DNA from: a virus
Virus genome (UHGV): UHGV-0299912
DNA: 34,856 nt
Direction: 5' to 3' (one strand)
The notes under the pieces are model-generated. The model had not been told where the DNA came from, searched no databases, and saw only the letters and a program-made list of their open reading frames with translations. The position numbers and the translations under genes were made by a program. This document shows, in pieces, positions 250-14,396 of this stretch (within the stretch, counting starts at the first letter, position 1; each line of letters begins with the position of its first letter).

Positions 250-951
250 CTATTTCATCACTCCTTTCAGCCCGAACTTAGCTTTGATTTCTGCGATCTT
301 CGCCAGCGCCTGAACACGATTTAGAGGTCTACCGCCCATGACAGGAAGTTGTTTTACTGGTTCAGGTATCGCCTCACCACGGTTAATTCGCGCGGTCATA
401 CAAGTCAGTTCATCGGCAGCCTTGCGCCGTAATTCCGTATCAGTAAGCGCATTGGCCCGCATATTCTGGTACAGGCTAGTAACCAGCCAGTAGTGCGCGT
501 TTGATTTCCACGGATAAGACTCTGCATCCGGATACAGGCCACGCTTCCGGCAATACTCGTAAACCATATCAACCAGCTCGCTGGCGTTTGGCAGCCCGGC
601 GGTAACGGATGCTTCTTCACGGCACCATGCAACAAACTGCCCGGGTGATGGCAGGAATGGTCGATTCTGCCGACGGGCTACGCGCATTCCTGCGTTAACC
701 TGTTCCATTGTGGTGATCCCGTTTTCCCGGAAAGCCAGAACCCACTGGCGGCGGATTTCGTTCAGTTCGTTCTGGTCCCGGTTAGCCAGGCTCGCCGGGA
801 AAGTTGCCAGTAACTGGCTGAACACACCGTTGATGATCTGCGCTACCTGCTGTACCTGCGGCTTTTCGTCGTACTGTTCCGGCATGTTGTTGGCGATCCG
901 ACGCATCTGCTCACGGTCAAAGTTAATCATCTGTGCGGCGATGTTTTTCAT
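250..951 (-). CDS. P: Replication protein P (DnaB helicase loader)
   Basis: 233-aa ORF whose translation I recognise as lambda P along its whole length; its start overlaps the O stop (ATGA), the lambda O-P arrangement. Confidence 0.93.
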   Translation of the reverse strand: MKNIAAQMINFDREQMRRIANNMPEQYDEKPQVQQVAQIINGVFSQLLATFPASLANRDQNELNEIRRQWVLAFRENGITTMEQVNAGMRVARRQNRPFLPSPGQFVAWCREEASVTAGLPNASELVDMVYEYCRKRGLYPDAESYPWKSNAHYWLVTSLYQNMRANALTDTELRRKAADELTCMTARINRGEAIPEPVKQLPVMGGRPLNRVQALAKIAEIKAKFGLKGVMK

Positions 952-1877
952 AAATCCACCCCGTAAATCCAGTCAGTGTTTGTCAGGTCGAGTTTTGGTT
1001 TTCCGGCTGTCACGCCAGCCTGTTGCTTGTTACGGTTGATTTCGAGCTGGGTCCACTTGTCGCGGAGTTTAGCCGGACTCAGCACGTTACCGGACCAGAA
1101 GTTGTCCTGGCATGCCCAGCGGAACAGCACGCACATGTCGCGGTGGTTACGTCCGTCACGTTCACGCATCAGGCGGATATCATTAGCCCACCCTGCAAAA
1201 TTCGGTTTTCTGGCTGATGGCGCGATGGTCTTCACCATGTCAAACATCCACTCTGCGGCGGTCAGGTCTTCTGCTGTCCCCCACTTGCTGCCGCTCTGAA
1301 TTGCAGCATCTGGTTTCACCACAGGAAGATCGTTTTCTGGTTGGTCAGAGGATTCGCCAGAATTCTCTGACGAAAAAGGTTTTATATTGTCTTTTGTTAG
1401 TTTGTCTTTTGTGTTTACCTGATTCGGGTAAACGCCTTTACCTGATTTGGGTAAACTTTTCTTACCTGATTCAGGTAAATTTACCTCTTTCAGGTAAACT
1501 TTATTTTTCTTACCTGATTCGGGTAATGTTGCCCATTCACTGACCACATTATTAATACCGATATTCCGCCCGCTCTGAATCAAAATCCCACGCTTTACCA
1601 GAACACTTTTTGCAGCAGAACACTTGTGCGGCAATATCCCGGTCAATTCGGACAGTTGCTCGTTGCTCACCCAATCCAGTTTTTTATTAAAGCCATATGT
1701 TTTGCGCATGACAGCCAGGAAGACCAGAAGCTGGTACTGTGTTAATCCGGCCAGCATCACAGCTTCCAGCAACTCATTTGCAATGCGCGTATAACCATCA
1801 TCGAGATCTGCCACACGCGGCTCCTTTTGTGCCTCATCCGGCACTGGAAAATTGAATATCTCAGCAGTGTTTGCCAT
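948..1877 (-). CDS. O: Replication initiator protein O
   Basis: ORF-track frame 948..1967. I place the start at ATG 1877 (MANTAEIFNF...), which has a GGAAGGA Shine-Dalgarno 5 nt upstream and aligns with the lambda O N-terminus (MTNTAKILNF...). The C-terminal half (SSENSGESSDQPEND...WIYGVDL) matches lambda O; the N-terminal DNA-binding half is diverged. Contains the origin iterons. Confidence 0.88.
   Translation of the reverse strand: MANTAEIFNFPVPDEAQKEPRVADLDDGYTRIANELLEAVMLAGLTQYQLLVFLAVMRKTYGFNKKLDWVSNEQLSELTGILPHKCSAAKSVLVKRGILIQSGRNIGINNVVSEWATLPESGKKNKVYLKEVNLPESGKKSLPKSGKGVYPNQVNTKDKLTKDNIKPFSSENSGESSDQPENDLPVVKPDAAIQSGSKWGTAEDLTAAEWMFDMVKTIAPSARKPNFAGWANDIRLMRERDGRNHRDMCVLFRWACQDNFWSGNVLSPAKLRDKWTQLEINRNKQQAGVTAGKPKLDLTNTDWIYGVDL
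1415..1527. repeat. Replication origin iterons (5 copies of ~19-bp TTACCTGATTCGGGTAAAC-type repeat) inside O
   Basis: Direct repeats starting at 1415, 1438, 1462, 1481 and 1510, each an internal inverted repeat (TTACC...GGTAA), followed by an AT-rich stretch. Same position as ori-lambda within O. Confidence 0.8.
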
Positions 1878-1963
1878 AATTCCTTCCGCAATGAGTGCGT
1901 TACGATTTGCACCTGAAAGTCGGCTCTGTTCCCGCAGACCGGCTTTCGCCATTTCTGAACCTG

Positions 1964-2503
1964 TCATATTGCCCCCAGCATGGTGGTAACCATCGCCATT
2001 AATGGACCAGCCAGATCCGGGTCCACACGAAACATCGACACAATACCTTCACTCATTTCCTTCAGTTTCTGGTGGCGTGGTGCGTTGAGAATGACCGCCT
2101 GCTTTGCCTCACTGAGTTCCTTATCCATTTCAGCCAACCGAGCCATGAAGCTATCCTGCTCAACCAGGTGGCCGCGATATTCCAGCGGTAGTACCGCCAG
2201 AATTGCCGGGGTCAGTTCACGCACGTTATTTCGGTATTTTTCAGAATCGAATTTGTTATCGAGGAAGCGGAACAGCTTCTGGCGTGCACGGCTGACATCA
2301 TCAGGGAAATCGATGGTGCCGCCGCCCTGCTCCCGATACTCATTCACAATGAGTGCGGCAACAACATCCTGATTATCTGCAGCCGACCAGGCGCGAACGG
2401 CATCACGGATTTTTTCGTGGCCTGGCGCCTGTTTTGTTTGAGAATGATTTATCACCGCAGTCGGGCTAAATCCGCTAGTCTGTTGGTATGTAAGTGGTTG
2501 CAT
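1964..2503 (-). CDS. YdaT-like protein in the cII position (putative CII functional analogue)
   Basis: 179-aa ORF between cro and O. Motifs NEYREQGGG and PAILAVLPLEYRGHL resemble Rac prophage YdaT as I recall it (EEYLRQGGG, PAILAILPRELRHRL). Confidence 0.7.
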   Translation of the reverse strand: MQPLTYQQTSGFSPTAVINHSQTKQAPGHEKIRDAVRAWSAADNQDVVAALIVNEYREQGGGTIDFPDDVSRARQKLFRFLDNKFDSEKYRNNVRELTPAILAVLPLEYRGHLVEQDSFMARLAEMDKELSEAKQAVILNAPRHQKLKEMSEGIVSMFRVDPDLAGPLMAMVTTMLGAI

Positions 2504-2572
2504 AATTGACTCCTTTAGTTTGAATTGACTGTTAAGTTGATTGCTTATTGTTAAAGAGCGTGAAATGGAAAT

Positions 2573-2803
2573 TTAAGCTGCGTTCTTTTCGGTGTGTGGA
2601 AACAACTTCGGAAGATCCGGGCGAATCTGGTATGCCTTCACTACTCCACCAGTAGCCGTAACAATGCTGCCGACATGTTCAGGGGATACCTTTGCTTTGT
2701 TGTGAAGCCACTTATAGACGGCCTGCTGTGAAACTTCGCAAGCAGCGCCCAGTTTCTTTTGTGAACCAACGATATTGATCGCTGTTTTGATAGCTGGGTT
2801 CAT
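2573..2803 (-). CDS. cro: Cro-like HTH regulator (YdaS family)
   Basis: 76-aa ORF divergent from the repressor gene; GGAGG Shine-Dalgarno 5 nt upstream of the ATG; helix-turn-helix-like segment (QKKLGAACEVSQQAVYKW). Confidence 0.8.
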   Translation of the reverse strand: MNPAIKTAINIVGSQKKLGAACEVSQQAVYKWLHNKAKVSPEHVGSIVTATGGVVKAYQIRPDLPKLFPHTEKNAA

Positions 2804-2907
2804 AACAACCTCCGTGGTTAATTTGAATCAAGATTAAAACTATGGTTGTTTTTAGTCAACAACCATTTTCGTTTGATGGAATAAAACCTTGGTTGTACAT
2901 TTGGACT
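2804..2907. promoter_or_regulatory. Immunity-region operator/promoter interval (candidate PR, PRM and operator palindrome)
   Basis: 25-bp palindrome ATGGTTGTT-N7-AACAACCAT at 2842..2866. Candidate PR on the minus strand: -35 TTGACT (2859..2854), 17-bp spacer, -10 TAATCT (2836..2831). Candidate PRM on the plus strand: -35 TTGATG (2873..2878), 17-bp spacer, -10 TACATT (2896..2901), which would give a leaderless cI mRNA starting near ATG 2908. Confidence 0.5.
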
Positions 2908-3597
2908 ATGAAAACAACACTCTCAGAAAGACTTAAAGAAGCTAGATTAGCGCGAGGCCTTACACAAAAGGCGCTTGGGGATTTGGTCGGGGTTAGACAG
3001 GCTGCTATTCAGAAAATCGAAACAGGGAAAGCTAATCAAACAACTAAAATCGTGGAGATCGCGAACGCTTTGGGTGTGCGCGCAGAATGGTTATCTTCTG
3101 GCGTTGGAAATATGTCAGACAGTACAGTGCAACCAATACAATCAACTGTCAGCCATTCCAAATACTTCAAGATTGACGTTCTTGATATAGAAGTCAGTGC
3201 TGGGCCGGGAGTCATCAACCGTGAGTTTGTAGAAGTTCTACGCTCGGTTGAGTACTCGTTTGACGATGCTCGTCACATGTTCGATGGTAGGAAGGCGGAA
3301 AATATCCGCATCATTAACGTGCGTGGTGACAGCATGTCAGGAACGATCGAACCAGGTGATCTGCTGTTCGTTGATATCACAGTTAAATCTTTCGACGGTG
3401 ATGGTATCTATGCGTTTCTGTACGACGACACAGCCCATGTAAAGCGCCTGCAAATGATGAAGGATAAGCTGCTGGTCATCTCTGATAACAAAAGCTACTC
3501 ACCGTGGGACCCGATCGAGAAAGACGAGATGAACCGGGTGTTCATCTTCGGTAAGGTTATTGGGAGCATGCCGCAGACATATAGGAAGCATGGGTAG
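2908..3597 (+). CDS. cI: CI-type prophage repressor (N-terminal XRE HTH, C-terminal LexA/S24 autopeptidase domain)
   Basis: ORF-track frame 2842..3597. I prefer the internal ATG at 2908 (MKTTLSERLKEARL...) because 2842 lies inside the operator palindrome. HTH (LTQKALGDLVGVRQAAIQKIE) and S24-like C-terminal region (RGDSM...K) are present. Confidence 0.88.
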   Translation: MKTTLSERLKEARLARGLTQKALGDLVGVRQAAIQKIETGKANQTTKIVEIANALGVRAEWLSSGVGNMSDSTVQPIQSTVSHSKYFKIDVLDIEVSAGPGVINREFVEVLRSVEYSFDDARHMFDGRKAENIRIINVRGDSMSGTIEPGDLLFVDITVKSFDGDGIYAFLYDDTAHVKRLQMMKDKLLVISDNKSYSPWDPIEKDEMNRVFIFGKVIGSMPQTYRKHG

Positions 3598-3718
3598 TAC
3601 CAATTAAAAATTATCAACTGGGCATTGTGCTCATTCAGTAAAGAACTAATTCCTATCTTTGCTCTAGGTAGTAATATTAAGCCACCGCAATAATATCTTT
3701 ACCTAACGGCGTAAGAAT

Positions 3719-3745
3719 CCCGGTCACCGTGCCGGGTTTTCTTTT
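3719..3745 (+). terminator. Rho-independent terminator downstream of cI
   Basis: CCCGG-tcaccgtg-CCGGG hairpin followed by TTTTCTTTT. Confidence 0.55.
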
Positions 3746-3880
3746 GCCCTCCCCTCATCACACACACCGTTAAAAAAACCACCATAACCTCCCTTCAGTT
3801 ATCGCTATGCGATTCAAGTCACAAAATAAATCCATCCTAAATACAACCAGTTATATCTAAAAAAACCAATAAAACAACTT

Positions 3881-3908
3881 TTGTTGTTGACGACAAAACA
3901 ACTATAGT
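3881..3908 (+). promoter_or_regulatory. Candidate leftward early promoter (pL-like) with overlapping GTTGTT/AACAAC inverted repeat
   Basis: -35 TTGTTG (3881..3886), 16-bp spacer, -10 TATAGT (3903..3908). Inverted repeat GTTGTT (3883..3888) and AACAAC (3897..3902) shares its half-site with the cro-cI palindrome. Confidence 0.4.
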
Positions 3909-4197
3909 TTTAAATGAGTTCATCGCAACAACACAACGATACGGCAACCACCTGATTCACCGTTGCGATGACCGCTTAGATCCGCAGCTTGAATTTCAGC
4001 AGGCTCCGGGGAGTGCGAGGGGTGAAGCGGACGCGTGAACGTCGGTGTGACCAGCTGAAATCAACCCAACTCAACACCTCATACCTCAGTCGCTTCAACG
4101 AGGCGGCTTAGTTATGACAACCGGCGGCCATCCACCGCCTGAATACGCGCAGAAGTCTCTATATGTTCAGCAGCCCAGCTTACGGGCAGGAGTTTTT

Positions 4198-6463: not shown

Positions 6464-8471
<2,008 letters not shown>

Positions 8472-9705: not shown

Positions 9706-9844
9706 AAAAATTGATAAATTCAATACTGCATTTCTCAGCATTAAATTTATCTCTATGACCAGTCAAGAGATGTACCTGCCATGAGCTTAATATCATGTCA
9801 GATATATCGGTCACAAACTCCCTCAGTAGCTAAGAGGAGGACAA

Positions 9845-10081
9845 ATGTCTCGACTAATCACTTTACAGGACTGGGCTAAAGAAGAATTTGGGGACTTAGC
9901 ACCAAGTGAGCGAGTTCTGAAAAAATACGCGCAAGGGAAAATGATGGCCCCACCCGCTATAAAAGTTGGTCGCTACTGGATGATTGACCGAAATTCCCGT
10001 TTTGTAGGAACGCTTGCAGAACCGCAACTCCCAATAAACGCAAACCCAAAACTCCAACGGATAATCGCTGATGGCTGCTAG
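9845..10081 (+). CDS. xis: Excisionase
   Basis: 78-aa ORF immediately upstream of and overlapping int; strong AAGAGGAGG Shine-Dalgarno; sequence recognised as an E. coli prophage excisionase type. Confidence 0.8.
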   Translation: MSRLITLQDWAKEEFGDLAPSERVLKKYAQGKMMAPPAIKVGRYWMIDRNSRFVGTLAEPQLPINANPKLQRIIADGC

Positions 10082-11213
10082 ACCCCGATCTCACAAAATC
10101 TCTATACCCAATTTATATTGCAAATTAGATAAGCGAACCGGAAAGGTATATTGGCAATACAAACATCCACTATCCGGTCGTTTTCATAGCTTAGGAACTG
10201 ATGAGAATGAAGCAAAACAAGTTGCTACTGAAGCAAATACCATTATTGCTGAACAACGTACCCGACAAATATTAAGCGTCAATGAGCGTCTGGAAAGAAT
10301 GAAAGGCAGGCGCTCAGACATTACGGTGACAGAATGGCTTGATAAATATATTTCTATCCAGGAGGACAGGCTGCAACATAATGAACTAAGACCCAACTCC
10401 TATCGGCAAAAAGGCAAACCCATTCGTCTTTTCCGTGAGCATTGTGGAATGCAACACCTCAAGGATATTACCGCACTTGATATTGCCGAAATGATTGATG
10501 CTGTAAAGGCTGAAGGTCATAACAGGATGGCGCAAGTCGTGAGAATGGTGTTAATCGACGTCTTCAAAGAAGCACAACACGCAGGACATGTTCCGCCAGG
10601 ATTTAACCCAGCGCAGGCAACAAAACAACCGCGAAATCGAGTAAACCGCCAAAGATTATCACTGCCCGAATGGCAGGCAATATTTGACAGCGTAAGCAGA
10701 CGGCAGCCCTATTTAAAATGCGGGATGCTACTTGCTCTTGTCACTGGACAACGTTTAGGCGATATCTGCAATTTGAAATTCTCTGATATCTGGGACGACA
10801 TGTTGCACATTACTCAGGAAAAAACCGGTTCAAAACTTGCTATTCCGCTTAACCTGAAATGCGATGCTCTGAATATTACCCTTCGTGAAGTTATATCTCA
10901 GTGCAGGGATGCTGTTGTTAGTAAATATCTGGTCCATTACCGTCACACAACCTCTCAAGCAAACAGAGGAGACCAGGTTTCTGCGAATACTCTGACAACG
11001 GCTTTTAAAAAGGCCAGGGAAAAATGTGGCATAAAATGGGAGCAAGGAACTGCGCCCACATTTCATGAGCAGCGATCTCTGTCAGAACGGTTATATCGGG
11101 AACAGGGTCTGGATACGCAAAAGTTGTTAGGCCATAAATCCAGAAAAATGACCGACCGATACAATGATGATCGTGGTAAAGACTGGATTATCGTAGATAT
11201 CAAAACAGCATAG
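10071..11213 (+). CDS. int: Tyrosine site-specific integrase
   Basis: 380-aa ORF with a tyrosine-recombinase C-terminal catalytic region (R...HxxR...Y context: LGHKSRKMTDRY). Adjacent to xis and the icd 3' fragment. Confidence 0.93.
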   Translation: MAARPRSHKISIPNLYCKLDKRTGKVYWQYKHPLSGRFHSLGTDENEAKQVATEANTIIAEQRTRQILSVNERLERMKGRRSDITVTEWLDKYISIQEDRLQHNELRPNSYRQKGKPIRLFREHCGMQHLKDITALDIAEMIDAVKAEGHNRMAQVVRMVLIDVFKEAQHAGHVPPGFNPAQATKQPRNRVNRQRLSLPEWQAIFDSVSRRQPYLKCGMLLALVTGQRLGDICNLKFSDIWDDMLHITQEKTGSKLAIPLNLKCDALNITLREVISQCRDAVVSKYLVHYRHTTSQANRGDQVSANTLTTAFKKAREKCGIKWEQGTAPTFHEQRSLSERLYREQGLDTQKLLGHKSRKMTDRYNDDRGKDWIIVDIKTA

Positions 11214-11223
11214 AAAACAGCCA

Positions 11224-11260
11224 GTTTTGGGGAAGGGTTTTGGGGAAAGTTTTGGGGAAG
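11224..11260. repeat. Three tandem 12-bp direct repeats GTTTTGGGGAAG / GTTTTGGGGAAA / GTTTTGGGGAAG
   Basis: Copies at 11224..11235, 11237..11248 and 11249..11260, 11 bp after the int stop and between int and the icd fragment. Candidate arm-type Int binding sites. Confidence 0.7.
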
Positions 11261-11280
11261 ATTTTACATCATCATAAAAC

Positions 11281-11303
11281 AACGGGCGTGTTATACGCCC
11301 GTT
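11281..11303. terminator. Bidirectional hairpin terminator between int and the icd fragment
   Basis: Perfect 9-bp stem AACGGGCGT / ACGCCCGTT with loop GTTAT. T-rich 3' flank on the plus strand (TTAAATATTT) and TTTT on the minus strand. Confidence 0.6.
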
Positions 11304-11326
11304 TAAATATTTAACACATGTAGTGA

Positions 11327-11494
11327 TTACATATTCTTGATGATCGCATCACCAAACTCTGAACATTTCAGCAGTTTAGCGCCTTCCATCAGACGTTCGA
11401 AGTCATAGGTTACGGTCTTGGCATTGATTGCGCCTTCCATACCTTTAACAATCAGGTCTGCGGCTTCGGTCCAACCCATGTGGCGCAGCAGCAT
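11327..11494 (-). pseudogene. icd: 3'-terminal fragment of isocitrate dehydrogenase gene icd (phage-borne att homology, e14 type)
   Basis: Minus-strand translation ...[55 protein letters not shown] is the Icd C-terminus as I recall it. Homology stops at ~11494, where the sitC sequence begins; there is no icd 5' region. Confidence 0.85.
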
Positions 11495-11496
11495 AT

Positions 11497-12180
11497 ATGC
11501 TGGGGCTTCCGTTTTCTCTGGGAGCCTTCTTTTCCGGCGGACTGGCTGCGGGCAGCATGCTGTTTCTTAACCAACGCACCCGCTTAAAAGAAGATGCCAT
11601 CATCGGCCTGATCTTCTCGTCCTTTTTTGGCCTGGGGCTGTTTATGGTGTCATTGAACCCGACATCTGTGAACATTCAGACCATCGTCCTGGGCAATATT
11701 CTGGCAATCGATCCGGCGGATATCCTGCAACTCACTATCATTGGCATTCTCTCGATCATCGTGCTTTTTTTCAAATGGAAAGATCTTATGGTGACCTTTT
11801 TCGACGAGAATCACGCCCGTGCTATTGGATTGCATCCGGGCAGATTAAAACTCCTCTTCTTCACCCTGCTGTCGGTTTCGACCGTTGCGGCGCTGCAAAC
11901 GGTTGGTGCCTTTCTGGTGATCTGTCTGGTGGTGACTCCCGGAGCAACAGCATGGTTGTTAACCGATCGTTTTCCCCGCCTGCTCATGATTGCTGTAACT
12001 ATTGGCAGTGTAACCAGTTTCCTCGGCGCGTGGGTCAGTTACTTTCTGGACGGCGCGACAGGTGGAATCATCGTGGTGGCGCAGACACTGCTGTTTCTTT
12101 TAGCATTTGTCTTTGCGCCCACCCATGGGCTTTTGGCAAATCGTCGGCGTGCGCATAAGGCGCTGGAGGATCGCTCATGA
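11497..12180 (+). pseudogene. sitC: 5'-truncated sitC (Mn/Fe ABC transporter permease)
   Basis: 227-aa frame matching the SitC/MntC/YfeC permease family from about residue 60 onward. The N-terminal ~60 codons, sitA and sitB are absent. Overlaps the sitD start (ATGA). Confidence 0.85.
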
Positions 12181-13034
12181 TGGCATTATTACTGGAGCCA
12201 CTGCAGTTCACCTTTATGAGTCACGCACTGCTGATTTCACTGGTAGTTTCCATACCCTGTGCGCTGCTGTCGGTCTTTCTGGTCCTGAAAGGCTGGGCAC
12301 TGATGGGTGACGCGATGAGTCATGCGGTTTTTCCTGGCATCGTGCTTGCCTGGATTCTGGGGTTACCTTTGGCTACAGGGGCATTCGTCGCCGGAGTATT
12401 CTGCGCGGTGGCGACGGGATACCTGAAAGACAACAGCCGAATCAAGCAAGATACAGTGATGGGGATTGTTTTTTCTGGCATGTTTGCCGCAGGTCTGATT
12501 TTGTATATTGCAGTCAAACCAGACGTACATCTTGACCATATTCTTTTCGGCGACATGCTCGGGATAACCATCGGCGATATAATCCAGACGGTGATTATTG
12601 CTGGGCTGGTTACACTTGTTATTAGCGTAAAATGGCGAGATTTTTTGCTGTTCAGCTTTGATTATCAACAGGCGCAGGTAAGCGGTTTGCATACGAGATG
12701 GCTGCATTATGGGCTGCTGTGCATGGTCTCTCTGACCATTGTGGCGACGCTGAAAGCGGTAGGTATTATTCTCTCCATTTCTCTGCTCATTGCGCCTGGC
12801 GCCATTGCGGTACTCCTGACACAACGCTTTTATATTGCGCTCCTACTGGCGACTGGCATATCGGTAATAGTGTCAATGATCGGTGTCTGGCTGTCCTTTT
12901 TTATCGACAGCGCACCAGCTCCGACGATTGTCGTCTTATTCGCGGTCGCGTTCATCATGACGTTTACCGTTACCAGCATCAACGCACGCACAAAGGGAAA
13001 CGCCCATACACAGGATCTGTTATCACCCAATTAG
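12177..13034 (+). CDS. sitD: SitD (Mn/Fe ABC transporter permease)
   Basis: 285-aa polytopic membrane protein of the ABC-3 permease family, immediately downstream of sitC. Confidence 0.88.
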   Translation: MMALLLEPLQFTFMSHALLISLVVSIPCALLSVFLVLKGWALMGDAMSHAVFPGIVLAWILGLPLATGAFVAGVFCAVATGYLKDNSRIKQDTVMGIVFSGMFAAGLILYIAVKPDVHLDHILFGDMLGITIGDIIQTVIIAGLVTLVISVKWRDFLLFSFDYQQAQVSGLHTRWLHYGLLCMVSLTIVATLKAVGIILSISLLIAPGAIAVLLTQRFYIALLLATGISVIVSMIGVWLSFFIDSAPAPTIVVLFAVAFIMTFTVTSINARTKGNAHTQDLLSPN

Positions 13035-13696
13035 CACAACATCCGAGGACATCATCGTCCGCCAGCCTACAGCAGTCCGGAAAGTCATGGAAGGTCGTTG
13101 GGAGGAGGTACGAATTCTATCATGCAAAAAATACGTAAAATCGATAATAGCTGGAAATAATTCAATACATGCACTCTCGAAAGTGCATCAGCCAACCGTG
13201 GCACGTTTTTGCATACAACGAGCCACGGTTCTCTTTACGATTTATAGCTGTATTGGTGAACTATGAGCAATTTTCGCGTTATATTCCAATCTTTAATCTC
13301 TTAACGGAACAAGTTGCATGCATGACTATATCAAGACAACTTATAACTACCAAAACATTTGCTTTGCAAGCAAAAACGGGGACCATTAACTCTAAGAAAA
13401 ATCCGATCTATTGTTAGGATTATTAAAGTTACTTAACAGTATTCCGAAATGAAAATACAAAGTAAGCTGATTGTCTTATTAAACATTATCATTGCATTTA
13501 TACTATTTGAGCTTTTAGATCAAAAATTCGGTTTGAGTACATTATTTTAAAGCAAGATAAATAATATCGGGCACTCTAGTTTTTATAATTAACAATTAAA
13601 CGCCCATAAAATGTTATTTACGTTTCTTCGCTATTGTAATATCTTAATATAGTGGTTTACGCCACTCTACTTTCATCATATTTTGTACGTTTATGT

Positions 13697-13725
13697 AATC
13701 GCCATGAAACTCTTTCATGGCGATT
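13697..13725. other. Perfect 13-bp stem, 3-nt loop hairpin (AATCGCCATGAAA-CTC-TTTCATGGCGATT) in the AT-rich spacer
   Basis: Seen directly; the plus-strand 3' flank is T-rich (TCTTATTCTT). Possible terminator or regulatory structure. Confidence 0.4.
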
Positions 13726-13814: not shown

Positions 13815-14396
13815 TTACCCTATAGGTGCTACTGGCCACTCAATATCCGGTACTACTGATGTATCAACACGGTTCAGCAACACCCGATACTTTTTCCAGG
13901 CTTCCAGCAACAAGGTTTCTTCCTCCGTTGCGATCTCCAGATCTACAGCATCCTGAAGCGGCGCTATATGCTCACTGGCTACCTGCATCAGGCTGTTTTT
14001 TGTTTCTTCCGCCTCCCGGATCCGGAACAGTTTTTCTGCTTCCGTATCCTTCACCCAGGCTGTACCGTTCCACTTCTGAAACTCCCCTTCCGGGGATAAC
14101 CAGGTGACATTTTCCGGTAATGAGCCGAGTTCAGAAATAAATAACGCGTCGCCGGAAGCCACGTCATAGACCGTTTTTCCCCGATGGTCTTCAACGAGAT
14201 GCCACGATGCCTCATCACTGTTGAAAACAGCCACAAAGCCAGCCGGAATATCTGGCGGTGCAATATCGGTACTGTTTGCAGGCAGACCTGTATGAGGCGG
14301 AATATATGCGTCACCTTCACCAATAAATTCATTAGTTCCGGCCAGCAGGTTATAAATTTTTATGGTCCGTGCTTGTTCACTCATTCTGAATGCCAT
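13815..14396 (-). CDS. tfa: Tail fiber assembly protein
   Basis: 193-aa ORF directly downstream of stf, with TAATG stop/start overlap; recognised as the lambda/Rac Tfa family. Confidence 0.85.

Follow-up and report, generated by a model that had tools for sequence, protein, structure and literature searches.

A very common E. coli prophage immunity region, probably a switch built like that of lambda, with a YdaT-family CII of the phi80 type

The region at positions 1964-3915 of the window (the whole stretch of DNA analysed, 34,856 nucleotides of UHGV virus genome UHGV-0299912) is an ordinary and very common lysis/lysogeny switch of the lambda type from an E. coli prophage, and encodes the repressor CI, a Cro, and a YdaT-family protein that is a phi80-type CII (Table 1). 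Every sequence feature described in the initial annotation was found. It is best explained, with a probability of about 0.78, as a lambdoid E. coli immunity switch that has the layout of lambda and different protein modules, in which CI dimers would act on 16-bp dyads. This explanation draws on the observed identities and homologies of the genes, on the statistics of the sites, and on their cross-genus conservation. Most of the 2.1-kb immunity region is present in at least 1498 of 5426 complete E. coli genomes, and the plaque-forming phage PhiR34_1 contains the same region at 98.7% identity. No mapped operators, binding data, or transcription data for this immunity type were found in the searchable literature.

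Table 1. Features of the immunity region and their positions in the window (a full stop marks features without a strand; operators, promoters and the CII box are predicted)
Feature	Positions	Strand	Description
cII	1964-2503	-	179 aa, assigned to phi80-type CII, Pfam YdaT_toxin family
Candidate CII (YdaT-type) box	2438-2455	-	GTGATA-aatcat-TCTCAA; within the cII ORF, +48 from the cII ATG
boxA-like element	2548-2560	-	CGCTCTTTAACAA; cro-cII spacer
cro	2573-2803	-	76 aa, assigned to YdaS-type Cro
Fourth operator-like site	2804-2819	.	AACAAC-ctcc-GTGGTT; 1 mismatch; 31 bp from OR1
PR	2830-2858	-	-35 TTGACT (2853-2858), 17-nt spacer, -10 TAATCT (2830-2835), start ~2824
OR1	2835-2850	.	TAAAAC-tatg-GTTGTT; in PR spacer and -10 edge; top PWM match, 22.6 bits
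25-bp palindrome	2842-2866	.	ATGGTTGTT-N7-AACAACCAT; 9-nt arms, 100% complementary, 7 nt apart
OR2	2858-2873	.	AACAAC-catt-TTCGTT; adjoins PRM -35; 14.1 bits; position conserved
PRM	2873-2901	+	-35 TTGATG (2873-2878), 17-nt spacer, -10 TACATT (2896-2901)
OR3	2882-2897	.	TAAAAC-cttg-GTTGTA; overlaps PRM spacer and -10; 21.5 bits
cI	2908-3597	+	229 aa, from internal ATG of ORF 2842-3597
Intrinsic terminator	3719-3746	+	3' of cI; terminator scan
OL3 (weak)	3842-3857	.	TACAAC-cagt-TATATC; left half alone good; 31 bp from OL2
OL2	3873-3888	.	AACAAC-tttt-GTTGTT; perfect 16-bp palindrome; right end overlaps PL -35
PL	3887-3915	+	-35 TTGACG (3887-3892), 17-nt spacer, -10 TTAAAT (3910-3915)
OL1	3897-3912	.	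AACAAC-tata-GTTTTA; within the PL spacer, reaching the -10 edge; OL2 at 24 bp; 22.5 bits

Regulatory Proteins of the Immunity Region

The cI product contained two Pfam domains, HTH_3 (E 5e-12, aa 1-65) and Peptidase_S24 (E 1e-18). The best solved relative of its HTH domain was the 434 repressor (1per, E 8e-9), and the S24 domain, as read from the translation, has an Ala98-Gly99 cleavage site, Ser142 (GDSM), and Lys179. The combination of an HTH, an S24 domain, the Ala-Gly pair, and the Ser/Lys dyad points to a lambda-type (LexA-like) self-cleaving repressor.

The cro gene is the first of the PR operon and divergent from the repressor gene. Its product matched Pfam YdaS_toxin (PF15943) with an E value of 4e-17 and 62.2 bits (cut-off 30), whereas the Pfam match to P22_Cro was weak; the top PDB match was the prophage Cro 3bd1, and identity to Rac YdaS was 30% over 63 aa. 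Both the HMM match above cut-off and the position agree with the initial annotation, which had recognized a YdaS-type Cro here, and the protein belongs to that type (PF15943). It would presumably bind the same sites as CI with the opposite preference. The cro-cII spacer contains a boxA-like CGCTCTTTAACAA, which resembles the rrn boxA TGCTCTTTAACAA; no boxB hairpin follows it in this spacer, and the relatives L087 and BTP1 have a boxA plus a hairpin.

The cII gene is preceded by a Shine-Dalgarno sequence (AGGAG, 7 nt 5' of the ATG), and its stop codon overlaps the start of O. The 179-aa product matched Pfam YdaT_toxin (PF06254; E 2e-29, 102.2 bits, cut-off 21, residues 67-154) and PHROG 163 (E 7e-66, aa 17-179), and was 66% identical over its full length to the CII of phage phi80 (180 aa), which on this comparison is its closest characterised relative. 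Full-length homology and the slot between cro and O both place the protein, on sequence grounds, among the phi80-type CII proteins of PHROG 163. An alignment against Rac ydaS and ydaT, which had been suggested as a check, was also run; besides the YdaS identity given above, it yielded ~35% identity to Rac YdaT, in the DNA-binding domain only (aa 29-122). The match to the YdaT structure PDB 8bt1 had an E value of 2e-4. At the family level, hhalign related phi80-type CII to YdaT with a probability of 99.7% (E 2e-25, 150 columns), and the alignment extended through the region of the long C-terminal tetramer helix. The recognition-helix segment RARQKLFRFLD aligned with RNTQKIFRWLD of CP-933P and QQNIYHRWL of Rac, and the HTH includes the Arg required for DNA binding (R57 in Rac). 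A single-sequence AlphaFold model predicted helices at 116-160 and is unreliable (pLDDT 38.9). The Pfam, PDB, and profile-profile matches suffice to establish family membership. The claim that a 179-aa YdaT-family protein occupies the cII slot was borne out by its PF06254 match and its place between cro and O, but the wording "YdaT-like rather than CII" set up a false contrast, because the protein is 66% identical to a CII and phi80-type CII is itself homologous to YdaT.

Could the 76-aa and 179-aa genes form a prophage YdaS/YdaT toxin-antitoxin pair and not encode switch regulators at all? The Pfam names "YdaS_toxin" and "YdaT_toxin" suggest as much, and Rac YdaS and YdaT are toxic on ectopic expression (PMC5700377, PMC5700373, PMC11879457). 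However, both products are HTH DNA-binding proteins in the lambdoid cro and cII slots between cI and O, the larger one closely resembles phi80 CII, the YdaT of CP-933P is non-toxic and activates a PRE-like promoter (PMC8630535), and the toxicity of Rac YdaT results from transcriptional activation of rcsA (PMC11879457). A type II toxin-antitoxin system found no support in the sequence, and the literature on the family argues against it (PMC5917428, PMC8630535). A toxin-antitoxin pair is thus very unlikely. The earlier remark that the role of YdaT is still debated is dated, since YdaS and YdaT have been shown to be Cro- and CII-like regulators (PMC8630535, PMC9986795, PMC11879457), and RefSeq now labels K-12 ydaT a transcriptional activator.

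The Operator Unit

The operator unit is most likely the 16-bp dyad AACAAC-N4-GTTGTT, to which CI dimers would bind. The initial annotation had chosen GTTGTT/AACAAC as the operator half-site, overlapping PR and PL, and dyad statistics support this choice. The word GGTTGTT itself was not enriched in the whole window (6 occurrences vs. 4.7 expected); the signal lies in the arrangement. With at most 2 mismatches, AACAAC-N4-GTTGTT occurred 8 times in the window vs. 1.56 expected, a number reached by none of 100 shuffles, and five of the eight matches lie within the OR and OL control regions. In 42 divergent loci of other enterobacterial genera, obtained from a GTDB genome scan and sharing the recognition helix QAAIQKIE, ACAAC-Nk-GTTGT peaked solely at k=4 (80 matches, with at most 9 at each other k). 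The N4 spacing and the site positions recurred in many of these loci, with sites near -26, -50, -73, and -104 from the cI ATG. Conservation was 0.96 at core half-site positions, 0.69 in the central N4, and 0.74 in the spacers between operators. Two IMG/VR scans returned near-identical E. coli copies only and were used for polymorphism, not divergence; nearly all variation among the 80 copies lies outside the half-sites.

A position weight matrix (PWM) was built from 18 non-E. coli loci, leaving out the Pectobacterium group (L090-L100), which keeps the recognition helix and has an OR3-like site only. In 34.8 kb, its six highest matches were the four sites of the window at OR and the two at OL, although the training sites were picked by the same dyad pattern, so that the matrix is independent of the window and not of the hypothesis. 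The scores of OR2 and of the fourth site (13.5 bits, rank 6) are alone no better than the best match in shuffled sequence (mean shuffle maximum 12.3), and the support for these two sites is therefore their positional conservation. The 434 repressor recognizes operators of 14 bp with ACAA and TTGT at the outer ends. Six predicted sites show this type of operator, a 14-bp ACAA-N6-TTGT repeated at OR and OL.

The initial annotation had instead taken the 25-bp palindrome ATGGTTGTT-N7-AACAACCAT, with the core GTTGTT-N7-AACAAC, as the operator, a model in which one dimer of CI or Cro would bind it and a related element would act likewise at PL. The palindrome is perfect and improbable by chance: among 5000 shuffles that preserved the composition of the 104-bp cro-cI spacer, only 30 contained an inverted repeat with perfect 9-bp arms and a loop of 0-12. 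As had been stated, the palindrome overlaps the -35 of PR (TTGACT). Furthermore, the order GTTGT...ACAAC was found again in relatives (19 matches at k=9, equivalent to N7), and the A and T that extend the arms are fairly conserved (0.92 each). However, it is the N4 dyad that recurs, whereas the gap of the palindrome is N8 at the PL of the window and N6-N8 in relatives, where it follows the OR1-OR2 distance of 22-24 bp, and natural E. coli variants have 1-nt insertions or deletions within this gap. OR contains a single such palindrome, which leaves the GTTGT/ACAAC words at 2804, 2835-2840, 2868-2873, and 2882-2897 unpaired. With TTGT...ACAA pointing inward and 13-14 bp between the centres of its half-sites, it reverses the 434 geometry. 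The palindrome covers OR1 from its centre through its right half, the 7 nt between the two operators, which belong to the PR -35, and OR2 from its left half through its centre. The single-operator model is thus unlikely, and the palindrome is most likely two adjacent 434-like operators read out of phase. At PL, the description of a GTTGTT...AACAAC repeat was right in that the two words flank the -35 (GTTGTT at 3883-3888, AACAAC at 3897-3902), but the gap is 8 nt and not 7.

Promoters and Proposed Regulation

PR, PRM, and PL were read by eye from the sequence and were not listed by a strict consensus promoter scan; the layout of PR is repeated at PL and in relatives. The three sites of OR start at 2835, 2858, and 2882 and form a tripartite array with spacings of 23 and 24 bp, centred at -65.5, -42.5, and -18.5 from the cI ATG. 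OR1 and OR2 lie over the spacer and -35 of PR and would thereby repress cro-cII-O-P. OR2 adjoins the PRM -35 at -42.5, the position from which the lambda and 434 repressors activate PRM, and OR3 over the PRM -10 would confer negative autoregulation. The predicted start of PRM is at or beside the A of the cI ATG (2908), which implies a leaderless cI mRNA with no Shine-Dalgarno sequence. A TAnnTT hexamer is found 6-7 nt 5' of the ATG in relatives, and leaderless mRNAs have been described for paaR2 and lambda cI (PMC8630535).

The CTCC in the middle of the fourth site is complementary to GGAG, the Shine-Dalgarno sequence of cro, and the site spans approximately +5 to +20 of the PR transcript. CI bound here would cover the ribosome-binding site of cro, at a distance of three helical turns from OR1. 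A counterpart was found in more than 20 loci of other genera, 27-31 bp beyond OR1 and mostly near -104 from the cI ATG.

PL reads into kil, gam, bet, and exo, and the arrangement of OL2 over its -35 and OL1 over its -10 is conserved across genera; repressor bound at OL2 and OL1 would shut off these genes. In several relatives, an ACAACC half-site lies upstream of OL2, at 31 bp in L088 and at variable distances in others. A put-type antiterminator RNA downstream of PL was considered and rejected, as similarity to HK639 putL stops after the first ~20 nt. No Rfam family matched the immunity region, and the predicted fold of 3916-4113 was no stabler than shuffles (z -0.41).

The early-left region also bears on whether the immunity region is in decay, left over in a defective prophage, with sites no longer selected as a switch. 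An IS21-family element at 6550-8351 breaks the early-left operon, the N gene is absent between PL and kil, and the boxA of the cro-cII spacer is without a boxB hairpin. Against decay, none of the three regulator ORFs is disrupted, the region matches copies in many genomes and in PhiR34_1 at 98.7-99.9% identity, and the 80 IMG/VR copies vary almost wholly outside the half-sites. Moreover, kil must be silenced by the repressor even in a defective prophage. Decay is consequently quite unlikely as an account of these sites.

A Candidate CII Box within cII

Upon infection, CII (an N-terminal HTH followed by a long helix) would be made from PR, and by analogy it would switch on a leftward establishment promoter whose transcript would cross cro in antisense and continue into cI. 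For YdaT proteins, both the activation of a PRE-like promoter and binding to TTGATT-N6-AATCAA in the 5' part of ydaT have been described (PMC8630535, PMC9986795, PMC11879457). The probable binding site of CII is a similar dyad in its own 5' coding region, which differs from the CP-933P consensus at 4 positions. Among 13 homologues, a match to TTGATT-N6-AATCAA with 2-4 mismatches was located at the codon-aligned +48 offset in 11, where it was the best or tied best in most; the twelfth, from an Aeromonas phage, has its candidate box at +45, and PHB10 lacks one. Within the box, ATA, a rare codon for Ile, and a T at a third codon position are retained. Its conservation within a coding region could partly come from constraint on the protein.

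Other matches to this consensus were also surveyed. In the whole window, 2 matches at no more than 2 mismatches were found vs. 1.7 expected. A match at 2814-2831 (2 mismatches) lies over the PR start and is insignificant. The match at 2537-2554 in the cro-cII spacer (3 mismatches) was dropped because it overlaps the boxA-like element, and inspection by eye near xis/int (9760-9900) gave no convincing CII box. A consensus scan for PRE found no leftward promoter near cII, and the aligned sequences downstream of the candidate box contained no consistent -10/-35 and no credible pair.

We tentatively propose, at somewhat less than even odds, that all phi80-type cII genes, that of the window among them, hold a site for their own product, nTGAnn-N6-nnTCAr, within the first 22 codons. 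The box may have been kept from Aeromonas phages to E. coli through rare-codon and third-position choices, and its location, just upstream of the codons for the DNA-binding domain, roughly matches that of the box footprinted for the short Rac YdaT. Such a place is consistent with a reading frame that grew upstream over an ancestral box.

Comparison with Known Systems

In lambda, the OR sites are spaced 23 and 24 bp apart, with the middle operator at ~-42 from the cI start. The window shares these features, as well as the order of the genes (cI / cro cII O P), the divergence of PRM from PR, a predicted leaderless cI, a LexA-type self-cleaving CI, and OL over PL. In contrast, its CI, Cro, CII, and operator sequence differ from those of lambda, it has an extra operator-like site over the cro ribosome-binding site, and N and rexAB are absent. 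The N-terminal domain of CI is closest to the solved 434 repressor structures and keeps the equivalent of Gln28, and the operator core ACAAC-N4-GTTGT agrees with that of 434 in length, in symmetry, and in the outer ACAA...TTGT bases. On the other hand, its recognition helix has Ala, Ala, and Lys in place of Gln29, Ser30, and Gln33, and Cro is YdaS/P22-Cro-like and not a 434 Cro. The conservation of a fifth base (C/G) indicates that specificity is probably distinct from that of 434.

The phi80 record (JX871397) annotates 3+3 CI operators, PRM, PR, and PL in the same layout, and the CII proteins are alike; the phi80-type CII family is also present in mEp237, HK225, HK639, and CobraSix. However, the CI of phi80 is just 23% identical, its Cro is barely similar, and its operators are 19-bp ...TGTKGATT sequences; phi80 further differs in its N gene, its nut sites, and the oop-like M3 RNA that follows cII, whereas cII of the window overlaps O. 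The CP-933P PaaR2-YdaS-YdaT and Rac RacR-YdaS-YdaT systems contain the same Pfam families, with Cro-like and CII-like proteins. Their YdaT, a tetrameric HTH protein, turns on a promoter that reads leftward to the repressor gene, and it binds a dyad at the ydaT 5' end (PMC8630535, PMC9986795, PMC11879457). The OR of CP-933P likewise contains four repeats, and its repressor gene is leaderless, as predicted for the window. Nevertheless, identity to YdaT is only ~35%, over the DNA-binding domain, the CII of the window has a ~27-aa N-terminal and a ~40-aa C-terminal extension, PaaR2 and RacR are without an S24 domain, their operators are unrelated to those of the window, and the window contains no toxin-antitoxin cargo.

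Implications

The logic of this switch is that of textbooks, and the equivalence of YdaS/YdaT to Cro/CII has already been published; the identification of the region opens no new question. Binding, promoter starts, activation, and the CII site are all predictions from the DNA. If true, the cII box, a fourth CI operator centred on the cro Shine-Dalgarno sequence, and the matching distal sites, 31 bp away at both OR and OL, would together describe an uncharacterised and very common immunity type. The immunity type is among the commonest lambdoid switches of E. coli, and a correct operator model, with 16-bp 434-like dyads and not a 25-bp palindrome, would help in reporter design, in the prediction of homo- and hetero-immunity between prophages, and in the correction of "toxin YdaT" annotations to "CII-like activator".

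Gene Organization of the Immunity Region and Its CII

ORF and family scans placed the early genes of a lambdoid prophage at the left end of the window, where the minus strand carries the rightward (PR) operon (see table). The immunity region of the CI / YdaS-type Cro / YdaT type that the initial annotation had described is real and well annotated, and the three genes were confirmed by Pfam. The cro-cI spacer measured 104 bp. The 2.1-kb region at 1900-4000 was present (coverage of at least 80%) in 1498 of 5426 complete E. coli genomes, and its genes are labeled "S24 family peptidase," "toxin YdaT domain-containing protein," and "transcriptional regulator" in RefSeq. It also occurred in isolated phages with cI/Cro/cII annotation, including PhiR34_1 (98.7% identity across the immunity region; recorded host K-12), and the immunity module is standard and functional. 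The cI-OL gap (3598-3870) held the terminator alone in the window, and related phages carried cargo there, such as BstA (BTP1), RexAB (Klebsiella ST101-KPC2phi6.1), GevT/GevA (PhiR47_2), and an ASCH-domain gene (4A7); this gap resembles a moron/defence hotspot, unoccupied in the window copy.

Features of the early region and prophage end
Feature	Position	Strand	Details
P	250-951	-	ORF and family scans
O	948-1967	-	ORF and family scans
cII-slot protein (179 aa)	1964-2503	-	Pfam YdaT_toxin, E 2e-29; PHROG 163 "CII-like transcriptional activator," E 7e-66
Candidate CII box	2438-2455	-	GTGATA-aatcat-TCTCAA; offset +48 from cII start
Cro-position protein (76 aa)	2573-2803	-	YdaS_toxin, E 4e-17
Fourth OR site	2804-2819		AACAAC-ctcc-GTGGTT; centred on complement of cro Shine-Dalgarno GGAG
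PR (putative)	-35, 2853-2858; -10, 2830-2835	-	TTGACT, 17-nt spacer, TAATCT
PRM (putative)	-35, 2873-2878; -10, 2896-2901	+	TTGATG, 17-nt spacer, TACATT
cI (229 aa)	2908-3597	+	HTH_3 and Peptidase_S24 domains
Intrinsic terminator	3719-3736		3' of cI
Weak OL-side site	3842-3857		One good half only; 31 bp beyond OL2
PL (putative)	-35, 3887-3892; -10, 3910-3915	+	TTGACG, 17-nt spacer, TTAAAT
kil, gam, bet, exo	Beyond cI terminator	+	ORFs and family scans
istA (340 aa)	Within 6550-8351		rve domain
istB (260 aa)	Within 6550-8351		IstB_IS21
xis	9845-10081		
Lambda-type integrase	10071-11213		

The 179-aa protein in the cII slot shared 66% identity over its full length with CII of phage phi80, and its family occupies the same slot in mEp237, HK225, HK639, CobraSix, and several Klebsiella phages. 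It had been described as YdaT-like rather than as a CII. The first part was borne out by Pfam and by profile-profile comparison of nine phi80-type CIIs with three YdaTs (99.7% probability, E 2e-25, 150 columns); the suggested alignment with Rac YdaT gave 35% identity over aa 29-122, the CP-933P YdaT structure 8bt1 was matched at E 2e-4, and the recognition-helix motif QK(L/I)FR(F/W)L was common to the protein and YdaT. The protein is longer than Rac YdaT by ~27 residues N-terminally and ~40 C-terminally, and its likeness to the experimentally studied YdaTs is genuine yet remote. The second part overstated the oddity, because the protein is a CII of the phi80 kind. The view that the role of YdaT is still debated went equally too far, since YdaS and YdaT are now regarded as analogues of Cro and CII (PMC8630535, PMC9986795, PMC11879457). 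CP-933P YdaT, a stated homologue of phi80 CII, activates a PRE-like promoter (PMC8630535); it forms a tetramer, has a POU-like HTH domain, and binds TTGATT-N6-AATCAA where ydaS and ydaT meet (PMC9986795). The sites bound by Rac YdaT are ATGATT-CATGAA-AATCAA, which covers the ydaT start codon, and the racR-ydaS intergenic region (PMC11879457).

Predicted Operators of the CI Repressor

The perfect palindrome ATGGTTGTT-N7-AACAACCAT at 2842-2866, initially proposed as a 25-bp operator, stands as a sequence feature, a comparable inverted repeat having arisen in just 30 of 5000 shuffles of the cro-cI spacer. As the operator unit it is not supported. Because its core, GTTGTT-N7-AACAAC, has an N8 gap at the window's own PL, because this gap ranges from N6 to N8 in relatives (tracking the OR1-OR2 distance), and because natural E. 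coli copies carry 1-nt insertions or deletions inside it, the most plausible reading of the palindrome is that it joins the right half of OR1 to the left half of OR2, with the PR -35 between them.

The best solved-structure match of the CI N-terminal domain was 434 repressor (1per, E 8e-9), whose operators are 14 bp long and of the form ACAA-N6-TTGT. Given this 434-like domain, the OR and OL regions were reread as AACAAC-N4-GTTGTT dyads. With up to two mismatches, eight such dyads were found in the window against 1.56 expected (0 of 100 shuffles reached eight), and five lay within OR and OL, starting at 2804, 2835, 2858, 3873 (perfect), and 3897; a sixth, at 2882, has three mismatches. The starts at 2835 (OR1), 2858 (OR2), and 2882 (OR3) are 23 and 24 bp apart, with centres at -65.5, -42.5, and -18.5 relative to the cI ATG, which is the spacing and placement of lambda OR1, OR2, and OR3.

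An alignment of three CI DNA-binding domains was used to scan a single genome from each species and yielded 43 loci in Kosakonia, Enterobacter, Klebsiella, Izhakiella, Erwinia, Pantoea, Brenneria, Providencia, Morganella, Serratia, Xenorhabdus, Photorhabdus, Arsenophonus, and other genera. Within 125 nt 5' of the repressor gene at 42 loci, ACAAC-Nk-GTTGT (at most one mismatch, k = 0-15) occurred 80 times at k = 4 and at most nine times at any other k, compared with ~0.1 in shuffles. Dyads in relatives clustered near -26, -50, -73, and -104 from the cI ATG, and at 12 co-linear loci the majority-base fraction was 0.96 in the core half-sites, 0.69 in the central four bases, and 0.74 in the inter-operator spacers. 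The top six scores in the 34.8-kb window of a weight matrix built from 66 sites of 18 loci, all non-E. coli, were the four OR and two OL sites. The OL layout was the same across genera, with GTTGTT of OL2 running into the PL -35 (GTTGTT/GAC), GTTTTA of OL1 into the -10, and an OL1-OL2 distance of 24 bp (23 in one locus). The phasing of the operators as N4 dyads is predicted with a confidence of roughly 0.75-0.8. In Pectobacterium spp. (repressor loci L090-L100), the QAAIQKIE recognition helix was the same, but only an OR3-like dyad was kept (TACAAC-ctag-GTTGTA at -26); the sequence upstream of it differs (TTAAACAAGATTAATA), pointing to another partner or another switch layout.

Putative Promoters, Auxiliary Sites, and Antitermination

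PR, PRM, and PL were read from the sequence, and a strict consensus promoter scan listed none of them. Like those of lambda cI and CP-933P paaR2, which are leaderless (PMC8630535), the cI mRNA probably lacks a leader, because the PRM -10 ends 6 nt before the ATG and cI has no Shine-Dalgarno. A TAnnTT hexamer 6-7 nt 5' of the cI ATG was kept in relatives. The fourth OR site, 31 bp (three helical turns) from OR1 and conserved across genera, is a probable auxiliary operator that could act as a PR roadblock, add cooperativity, or aid looping. On the OL side, an ACAACC half-site upstream of OL2 was seen in several relatives. Right at the beginning of the PL transcript, 3920-3971 contained a perfect 10-nt inverted repeat (TCATCGCAAC/GTTGCGATGA); the first ~20 nt of this transcript resembled the PL transcript starts of HK639 and of relatives in Kosakonia and Enterobacter (CCATCGAAACGAAACATCGA).

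The cro-cII spacer contained a boxA-like element, CGCTCTTTAACAA (2548-2560, minus strand), nearly identical to rrn boxA. No boxB hairpin followed it, unlike in Providencia PSTCR7lys and Salmonella BTP1, which have the same cro and a boxA plus hairpin. No N-like ORF was present between PL and kil (including 3916-4113), and antitermination in this phage may be independent of N.

A Candidate CII Site

The region from -60 to +120 of the cII start was searched for the YdaT box in the window and in homologues. Like the CII site of lambda, the candidate box is located within the 5' part of the cII gene. A match at +48 was also found in phi80, mEp237, HK225, CobraSix, KO-TP1, ST974, ST16, ST13, 5 LV-2017, and Chris1 (32% protein identity), and was the best or tied-best in most homologues searched. 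An Aeromonas phage had its match at +45, and the short YdaTs of Rac and an Actinobacillus phage had the box at -7, the Rac box having been footprinted (PMC11879457). The residues encoded across the box vary (AVINHSQ, AMINRAQ, ALIKRNQ, AVKSQNQ, RLSSGNQ). Since the rare Ile codon ATA is nevertheless kept in 10 of 13 sequences and T precedes the CAA/CAG codon whichever the residue (TCT, GCT, AAT, TGT), this conservation points to selection on DNA. Because a search found no convincing promoter adjoining the box, its role as a CII-binding site is proposed tentatively. A joint-best match to the YdaT box in the window, GTGGTTAATTTGAATCAA (2814-2831, two mismatches), overlies the PR -10/+1; with two matches against 1.7 expected at this threshold, it is not significant alone. 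Among 80 E. coli copies it varied mostly in the central 6 nt. In Rac, YdaT binds over the ydaS promoter (PMC11879457).

The Rest of the Prophage and the Proposed Switch

An IS21-family element (6550-8351) lay in the early-left operon directly after exo and a 62-aa ORF, with short perfect inverted repeats nearby (6527-6548). The xis and integrase genes mark the prophage end; beyond the integrase, the 9845-13100 stretch contained sequence matching the E. coli sit iron/manganese transporter genes. The segment 8300-15000 was found in no complete E. coli genome at coverage of at least 80%. The sole Rfam match in the window was IS009 (13855-14053, minus strand, 221 bits), near a nested AT-rich perfect palindrome around 13697-13725.

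The immunity region would form a lambda-type bistable switch, a general picture in which confidence is high. CI dimers at OR1/OR2 and OL1/OL2 would silence PR and PL, with CI at OR2 positioned for PRM activation and OR3 mediating cI autoregulation, and RecA-stimulated CI self-cleavage (Ala98-Gly99, Ser142, Lys179) would lead to prophage induction. Cro would act at the same sites as CI, and the phi80-type CII would set up repressor synthesis after infection. The immunity switch itself is ordinary; what is added here is the re-phasing of its predicted operators, backed by cross-genus comparison, and the candidate CII box.
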